This document shows positions 47,206-47,597 of a stretch of 64,000 nucleotides of DNA, one piece after another. Where the stretch lies: sequence record PQ352352.2; one strand, given 5' to 3'. Each line of letters begins with the position of its first letter. Position 1 is the stretch's first letter. This DNA comes from Escherichia phage vB_EcoM_PTE-Eco15. Position numbers and translations under genes: made by a program. Below the pieces are notes generated by a model. It ran no database searches. It was not told where the DNA came from and saw only the letters and a program-made list of their open reading frames with translations.

Positions 47206-47597
47206 TCATGGAACTTATTACATAATTATTTGACGGCGCTTCGGCGCCGGTTGTTAACTTAAATCCTAAGCATAAAATACCACAAATTTTTGCTATTCAA
47301 GCCGGCGAAGAAAGCGTGCTTCCTGGATTTAGATTTTGTACATACACCTCTGGCGGTGATACGAATAAAAACGTTAAGCCGGGCGATAAAATGATGCATA
47401 TCGTAATGATAGGTGTTAATGAGAAATTATCACTGGTTAAGCTTAGAAACTTGGGTGGAAATCCAATTGGCGTCATTAATGCTGTTTTTGATACTGCTCT
47501 TCAAACAATGAAGCAGTATAAAATTGACGCATGCCTATTCCGCGTACTAAAAAGTTCAAAATGTAGTTTACAAGTCCCTCGTGTTGTGTTACAGTAG
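47206..47597 (+). pseudogene. degenerate duplicate of the alt 5' region (Alt N-terminal paralogue interrupted by TAA at codon 6)
   Basis: ATGGAACTTATTACATAA... parallels alt ATGATGGAACTAATTACAGAA...; downstream translation FRFCTYTSGGDTN...DKMMHIV...MKQYKIDAC aligns with Alt residues ~40-130; longest sub-ORF is 47316-47597 with GTG start. Confidence 0.5.
47566..47595 (+). promoter_or_regulatory. early promoter (-35 GTTTAC, -10 TACAGT), second copy of the alc promoter-leader cassette
   Basis: AGTTTACAAGTCCCTCGTGTTGTGTTACAGTAGTCTTACTGACATAACATGAGGA nearly identical to 34202-34256. Confidence 0.45.

Follow-up and report, generated by a model that had tools for sequence, protein, structure and literature searches.

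Introduction

[quoted passage not shown] A propeptide of 7 residues is removed from Alt by the prohead protease (PMC9026906). The T4 genome also contains alt.-1 (NP_049810) and alt.-2 (NP_049809), which, according to the GenBank record, together form a duplicate of the beginning of alt that is interrupted by a stop codon. This statement was repeated by Nolan et al. 2006 (PMC1524935), the only mention detected in a literature search on alt.-1 and alt.-2, in which expression or proteomic data were not found. The equivalent fragment of Yersinia phage fPS-2, g192c, is annotated as 'similar to N-terminal of RNA polymerase-ADP-ribosyltransferase Alt, putative pseudogene'. The adjacent gene, alt.-3, is a real, expressed gene of T4, and mutants with a C-terminal extension of its product escape the CmdTAC defence system (PMC11618068). 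A 2026 note, the sole result of a search for Alt paralogues, described two Alt-like paralogues, 43% identical, in some Tequatroviruses. The duplication itself is, therefore, already described in the T4 record, by Nolan et al. and in the fPS-2 record, while an origin by deletion seems to be unstated in these earlier descriptions.

Here we describe the equivalent fragment in a window of 64,000 nt, the whole stretch of DNA that was analysed, from Escherichia phage vB_EcoM_PTE-Eco15 (PQ352352.2). The name alt2 is used for a second, full-length Alt-like ADP-ribosyltransferase gene of 685 aa, and the fragment is referred to as the relic.

Results

Position of the relic and its similarity to alt

The window is a segment of a Tequatrovirus (T4-type) genome, and its region of interest shares 99% identity with both Escherichia phage EC128 and Yersinia phage fPS-2. 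The plus strand carries, in order, the ligase gene (gp30), alt.1, alt, the relic and an alt.-3 homologue, followed by gp54 on the minus strand. T4 has this gene order as well, and in both the window and T4 the relic is flanked by alt and alt.-3, with all three on one strand. The features upstream of and within the first codons of the relic are as follows.

43455-44918, plus strand: DNA ligase gp30
44915-45103, plus strand: alt.1
45125: T4 late-promoter motif TATAAATA, upstream of alt and right after the alt.1 hairpin
45153-47204, plus strand: alt, intact, encoding the 683-aa Alt ADP-ribosyltransferase (ORF listing; Pfam PF03496)
47197-47201, plus strand: Shine-Dalgarno AAGGA of the old alt2 start
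47208-47555, plus strand: 5′ relic of alt2, codons 1 to 116 (alignments to T2 alt2)
47223-47225, plus strand: TAA nonsense codon at codon 6 (GAA to TAA)

The alt stop codon (TAA, 47202-47204) is followed by ATC and then by an ATG at 47208, such that the gap between the two reading frames is 3 nt and not the 2 nt given in the first-pass annotation, which had placed the restart at 47206. The stop at codon 6 reported in that annotation was present (ATG GAA CTT ATT ACA TAA), and beyond this stop the frame of ATG 47208 remains open to a TAG at 47595-47597. With alt, the older paralogue, as the reference, pairwise alignment of the relic with the alt 5′ end gave 68% nucleotide identity over 337 aligned columns, while the translated relic matched Alt residues 2-118 with 70/117 identities (60%; E=9e-48). 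Judged by these alignments, the similarity is far beyond chance. Paralogy with Alt had been proposed before and was upheld, but the range assigned to it, Alt residues ~40-130, has to be replaced by residues 2-118. Alt residues 375-615 matched Pfam PF03496 (E=1.4e-34), as did the T2 alt2 product, whereas a Pfam search with the 128-aa relic product found no family and, hence, no ADP-ribosyltransferase domain.

A full-length second gene in related phages

Two IMG/VR loci, found with the 128-aa relic product in a scan that returned nine loci in all, provided the lead to the origin of the fragment. In both loci the first 351 nt and the last 54 nt of the fragment matched 1.7 kb apart, and an intact 685-aa ORF filled the 1.7 kb between the two matches. 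An intact alt2 ORF of 2,058 nt, located 3 nt past alt and starting ATGGAACTTATTACAGAA, was present in T2, ZN18 and nine other loci. T2 has two tandem full-length 'Alt-like RNA polymerase ADP-ribosyltransferase' genes 3 nt apart, the second of which encodes XYW65519.1 with the PF03496 ART domain, and PP01 also keeps a full-length alt2 directly 3′ of alt. Comparison with the alt neighbourhoods of these and other T4-like phages thus revealed the same relic in T4 and fPS-2 and the full-length gene in T2.

The central 1.7 kb of alt2 was detected in 407 phage records, with coverage of at least 80% in 402, and alt2 directly follows alt in ~400 of ~490 Tequatrovirus records. The short layout was found in 90 records, the deletion junction being spanned by 90/487. 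With 407 records against 90 short ones, full-length alt2 is the majority state in the genus and, on these record counts, T4 and this window are the exception within Tequatrovirus.

Identity between alt2 and Alt was 41% overall and differed strongly between segments.

alt2 residues 1-116: 61% identity to Alt
alt2 residues 117-238: 72% identity to Alt
alt2 residues 239-415: 20% identity to Alt
alt2 residues 416-620 (ART domain): 36% identity to Alt

The first 348 nt of the relic were identical to the 5′ end of T2 alt2 at 338/348 positions (97.1% DNA identity), and tblastn of T2 alt2 against the window gave 99.1% identity over residues 1-116 (apart from the stop). No further pieces of alt2 were detected in the window besides the region for residues 1-116 and a 3′ tail.

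A deletion between direct repeats

A sample of 19 relic loci and 11 full-length loci was read in detail; these 30 sequences are not phylogenetically independent. Nine of the 11 full-length copies have the 9-nt direct repeat CTAAARAGT at alt2 nt 340 and nt 2039, the repeat being perfect (9/9) in four. The distance between the two copies (2039-340 = 1699 nt) is equal to the difference in locus length (2141-442), and in the relic a single copy of the repeat remains.

47547-47555, plus strand: deletion junction, with the sole remaining repeat copy CTAAAAAGT
47556-47566, plus strand: last 11 nt of the old alt2, TCAAAATGTAG

As 1699 is not a multiple of 3, codon 116 meets the final 11 nt of alt2 in the wrong frame, and the ancestral stop codon (TAG, 47564-47566) is out of frame with the 5′ relic. 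Because of this out-of-frame fusion, the 12-13 terminal residues of the relic frame, SKCSLQVPRVVLQ, are nonsense, encoded by the former 3′ end of alt2 and by the promoter region that follows. The 3′ stretch of the relic matched the alt2 3′ end and the spacer downstream of it, and the junction, GTACTAAAAAGTTCAAAATGTAG, was identical in 19/19 relics, i.e., the window, T4 and 17 others.

These observations show that a 1699-nt deletion between the CTAAARAGT repeats took out alt2 codons 117-682, cutting the conserved N-terminal module in the middle and eliminating the whole ADP-ribosyltransferase domain. The breakpoint does not correspond to a domain boundary, as identity between alt and alt2 is high on both sides of it (residues 1-116 and 117-238 above). 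The high identity to T2 alt2 (97.1% for DNA and 99% for protein) indicates that the truncation is recent relative to the old alt/alt2 duplication. The sequence from 47208 to 47597 is, hence, interpreted as a non-functional relic of a full-length alt2 that was truncated by a 1699-nt deletion, a reading to which we assign a probability of about 0.9.

A different origin is implied by the T4 record, in which the locus is noted as 'an old duplication of the first part of gene alt', and by the first-pass annotation, which had suggested a tandem duplicate. A partial tandem duplication of the first ~350 nt of alt, with drift since then, would explain why the fragment resembles the 5′ end of alt only and directly adjoins this gene. 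However, the fragment has 97% identity to the 5′ end of the full-length paralogue and only 68% to alt, its 3′ end matches that of the paralogue, its breakpoints are a 9-nt direct repeat within the full-length gene, and the full-length form is the commoner one. Partial duplication is highly improbable as the mechanism, and the ancestor was a complete 685-aa gene cut by a repeat-flanked deletion.

Disabling lesions and substitutions in the relic

Two lesions recurred among the relics, the TAA at codon 6 and the loss of one A from an A5 run at codon 54; this run is intact in the window.

47367-47371, plus strand: A5 run, intact in the window

The sampled relics were distributed over the two lesions as follows.

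TAA at codon 6 only: window, fPS-2, FL12, fPS-90
1-nt loss in the A5 run at codon 54 only: T4 and eight others
Both lesions: ACG-C40, Lutter, ESh30, HY03 (HY03 also with a 7-nt duplication)
No lesion: AV121, FL23

Every combination of the two lesions was, therefore, represented among the 19 relics. The loss of one A, found in T4 and 12 other sampled relics, is responsible for the split into alt.-1 and alt.-2. The TAA allele was detected in 8/19 relics, in none of the 11 full-length copies and in 42 of 489 database records; as this allele is common to 42 independent records, sequencing error was ruled out as its origin. Overall, 17/19 relics and 0/11 full-length copies were disabled (Fisher p=1.4e-6, a value that is overstated as the sequences are not independent). 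The first-pass description of the fragment as decaying was, hence, borne out by the presence of different disabling lesions in different phages.

Changes private to the relics comprised 8 nonsynonymous and 8 synonymous substitutions in addition to the stop and the frameshift, while the full-length copies exhibited 2 nonsynonymous to 35 synonymous changes (p=4.6e-4, with significance overstated by a small, phylogenetically uncorrected sample). In this comparison the relic-private substitutions show relaxed constraint, the pattern of a pseudogene. Most of the polymorphisms in the relics also occur in full-length copies, which fits frequent recombination among T-even phages. The nonsynonymous share of the relic-private changes (half) is lower than strict neutrality predicts. 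The simplest explanation for this shortfall is unsampled polymorphism that recombination has brought in from full-length copies, although the relic may also be under weak constraint.

Against the pseudogene reading, the 128-codon ORF of AV121 and FL23 (2/19) is still uninterrupted and is preceded by a good ribosome-binding site, and a truncated peptide may be made in these two phages. Another view of the lesions is that the truncated Alt2 N-terminus still carries the determinant for entry of Alt-family proteins into the prohead core and was a harmful competitor of Alt just after the deletion, in which case the TAA and the A5 loss would have been positively selected and spread by recombination instead of being fixed by drift. 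We regard this selective scenario as very doubtful; if it were true, the locus would record the silencing of a dominant-negative packaging fragment and the determinant would map to residues 1-116.

The start site and the codon-6 stop

The AAGGA sequence preceding the old alt2 start has an anti-Shine-Dalgarno duplex energy of -5.2 kcal/mol, similar to those of nearby real genes, and the record for phage 132 annotates an RBS at this position. Since this Shine-Dalgarno sequence is still intact, the 5-codon mini-ORF is probably translated. The late transcript of alt would run into the relic, and ribosomes would start at the intact RBS, make Met-Glu-Leu-Ile-Thr and stop, such that no useful Alt-like peptide would result. 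The Glu codon replaced by the TAA specifies the residue that, in Alt, is at the P1 position for the prohead protease (LITE followed by L).

Bypassing in T4 gene 60 relies on a stop codon together with a hairpin. In the T4-type phage studied here, the codon-6 stop precedes a stable UUCG hairpin by 8 nt, an arrangement that raises the idea of recoding of the TAA, either by readthrough or by gene-60-style bypassing aided by the hairpin, with a full 128-aa product. The take-off codon would be ACA, but there is no matching landing codon; the next ACA (relic nt 75-77) lies in another frame, which closes at a stop within 16 codons. The TAA is, moreover, a derived allele (42/489 records) that was restricted to relics among the 30 sequences and freely co-occurs with the frameshift lesion, and any product would anyway be truncated and end in the out-of-frame tail. 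Readthrough and gene-60-type bypassing were, therefore, rejected on the basis of the missing landing codon, the derived TAA and the co-occurring frameshift, the probability of recoding being negligible.

Reading frames inside the relic

Downstream of the stop codon, the relic contains two internal start codons, a GTG at 47316 and an ATG at 47391, and a short decoy peptide expressed from the former had been put forward in the first-pass annotation.

47316-47597, plus strand: 93-aa GTG ORF, a mechanical ORF inside the relic

The 93-aa ORF exists, as confirmed by the ORF listing. An Alt-N-like peptide of 93 aa (from GTG 47316) or ~68 aa (from ATG 47391) could serve as a decoy for the binding partner of the Alt N-terminus, e.g., the prohead core, or compete for it. 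The ATG ATG ORF at codon 62, annotated as alt.-2 in T4, is open in 18/19 relics, and the protein sequence of the region shares 99% identity with the N-terminus of the presumably functional alt2. However, the sequence upstream of GTG 47316 has no Shine-Dalgarno (-2.4 kcal/mol, a value reached by 42% of random positions) and that upstream of ATG 47391 has only a weak one (-3.6 kcal/mol, compared with -5.2 to -6.9 for nearby real starts). The GTG ORF is broken by the frameshift in 13/19 relics, the codon-62 ORF is also broken in HY03, and half of the relic-private changes are nonsynonymous. The peptides would lack the first 36 or 61 residues as well as the better-conserved half of the module (residues 117-238); with the breakpoint at residue 116 lying in the middle of this module, a stable domain is unlikely. 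A decoy peptide is, hence, a very slim prospect.

The UUCG hairpin

The first-pass annotation had correctly detected a GGCGC-TTCG-GCGCC hairpin shortly after the codon-6 stop.

47234-47249, plus strand: C(UUCG)G tetraloop hairpin CGGCGC-UUCG-GCGCCG with a 6-bp G+C stem, within alt2 codons 9-14 (DGASAP)

The core of this hairpin, GGCGCTTCGGCGCC at 47235-47248, is unique in the window, with 0 occurrences expected by chance. The hairpin had been described as inserted, but the segment containing it is 3 nt shorter than its alt counterpart and the hairpin was present in every intact alt2 examined. All 30 relic and full-length sequences had the hairpin with an unchanged stem; its presence in every alt2, long or short, indicates that it predates both the truncation and the TAA.

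The loop was altered only in the full-length alt2 of Shigella phage CT01 (OK018184), where codons 11-12, equivalent to 47240-47243 of the window, have an exact inversion of the loop (GGCGC-TTCG-GCGCC to GGCGC-CGAA-GCGCC) with the stem untouched, resulting in a change of Ser12 to Glu. This alteration looks like a quasi-palindrome template-switch mutation.

C(UUCG)G hairpins in T4 mRNAs were reportedly described by Tuerk et al. 1988, and the excess of CTTCGG in the window (32 observed and 13.5 expected) fits such hairpins. The relic could have been kept for signals that act in cis, with the UUCG hairpin serving as a 3′ stabiliser of, or processing barrier for, the alt mRNA and with a promoter for alt.-3 at the other end; the resemblance to coding sequence would then be incidental. 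The hairpin is very stable, lies 30 nt past the alt stop and had an invariant stem in the sample; the over-represented CTTCGG also closes a terminator-like hairpin after alt.1 (45101-45120), and the deletion ends 11 nt before the GTTTAC of a site annotated as a promoter in another phage. Against this view, the hairpin belongs to the coding sequence of full-length alt2, where no RNA role is required to account for its conservation, and 14 invariant bases are not unusual at ~3% divergence; conservation of the hairpin is, for both reasons, unusable as evidence of an RNA function. No U tract follows the hairpin, the sequence being GTTGTTAAC instead, and no Rfam family matched it. The ~300 nt between the hairpin and the junction persist without any proposed cis function, and the end-points of the deletion were set by the chance position of the repeats. 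Retention for cis signals is unlikely, though with some modest chance of being right, and a role of the hairpin as a 3′ barrier for the alt mRNA is conjectural.

A rho-independent terminator was rejected as an identity for the hairpin because a U tract is missing; the terminator scan called hairpins at 45101 and 47922 but not at 47234. An Rfam scan of 46900-48000 at E<=1 gave nothing at the hairpin and only sub-threshold chance matches elsewhere. The hairpin after alt.-3 (47922-47943) is bidirectional, with a GAAA loop that reads TTTC on the other strand.

The spared promoter-like site and alt.-3

Just downstream of the old alt2 stop, the deletion spared a site that resembles a T4 early promoter, 31 nt upstream of alt.-3.

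47566-47595, plus strand: T4 early-promoter-like site (TTTACA, 17-nt spacer, TACAGT)
47627-47917, plus strand: alt.-3 homologue, 96 aa, DUF5498 (Pfam PF17602, E=5e-64)

This site has a GTTTAC element and a TG-extended -10 of TACAGT, and coincides with a promoter annotated in the record for phage Lutter; transcription of the alt.-3 homologue presumably starts from it. Only this site and, possibly, the UUCG hairpin are likely to be parts of the relic that would still be relevant, both of them in cis.

The -10 element (47590-47595) varied among the sequences, with TACAGT in the window, TATAGT in 17/18 other relics and in the right flank of PP01, and TATAAT in T2 and ZN18; among the relics only ACG-C40 shares the C of the window. 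No phage-collection record was 100% identical to the window over 47510-47595. The base change that produces TACAGT also shifts the stop codon of the relic ORF by one codon. In Yersinia phage fPS-90 (locus 578-856) the alt.-3 homologue is annotated with a length of 279 nt as compared to 291 nt, and the fPS-90 locus matched the 801-nt query over a span that was 12 nt shorter, which amounts to a small in-frame length difference. The length of the C-terminus of alt.-3 matters for CmdTAC escape in T4.

Variation in alt itself

Two length classes of alt were apparent, one of 2,049-2,052 nt (window, T4, fPS-2 and ACG-C40) and one of 2,088-2,097 nt (AV121, ZN18, T2 and PP01). The window and ZN18 were the only pair compared over the full length; their first ~240 residues were nearly identical, and the central and C-terminal halves clearly differed. 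This pattern suggests modular exchange of the effector half. Escherichia phage HY03 (KR269718; locus 1-3015) has alt cut to a 645-nt CDS, with unrelated minus-strand ORFs standing in for the 5′ part of alt and the ligase side, and its relic has three lesions (the TAA, the 1-nt deletion and the 7-nt duplication). In CC31-like IMG/VR contigs (L009-L012, about 2986-5120), a single alt is located between ligase and the alt.-3 homologue. The N-terminus of this CC31-like alt (KIPQIFAI..., NKNVKPGDKMMH, GVSEK) seems to resemble alt2 more than alt; hence, the alt2-type N-terminus may be the older form.

Discussion

The new detail provided by this analysis is modest and consists of the origin of the relic by a repeat-mediated 1.7-kb deletion and of at least three kinds of disabling lesion. 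Neither a new mechanism nor a functional product was indicated by the comparisons made here. The main consequence is one of annotation, as alt.-1/alt.-2 and their equivalents in ~90 database phages are better annotated as a single pseudogene than as one to three 'hypothetical proteins' or 'ADP-ribosyltransferases'. A second consequence is that the laboratory model T4 lacks a virion-type ADP-ribosyltransferase paralogue that has been kept by T2 and about four fifths of the genus. This loss of alt2 from T4 bears on the generalising of results obtained with Alt and on comparisons of T-even phages on hosts with defence systems. For biology at large the finding is of little importance; it corrects a detail of the T4 annotation.

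Among the known systems, T4 Alt is a paralogue of the relic, with 60% identity over the N-terminal 116 residues, the MELITE propeptide motif included. Alt is intact and has its catalytic domain; in the relic the ORF is broken and the catalytic domain is missing. The alt2 genes of the T2/PP01/ZN18 type are the same as the relic in position, ribosome-binding site and UUCG hairpin, but have the PF03496 ART domain and 685 codons, of which 117-682 are absent from the window. The closest described fragment is g192c of fPS-2, which has 99.5% DNA identity to that of the window and the same TAA allele; there is essentially no difference between the two, and the fPS-2 annotators called the GTG ORF a CDS. 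The T4 alt.-1/alt.-2 sequence occupies the same locus as the relic of the window, with 95.2% DNA identity over 396 nt and an identical deletion junction. The two differ in their lesions, as T4 has lost an A from the A5 run at codon 54 and kept GAA at codon 6, while the window has kept the A5 run and acquired TAA at codon 6. Finally, the T4 record names this locus as a partial duplication of alt, whereas the data presented here show a truncated full-length paralogue.
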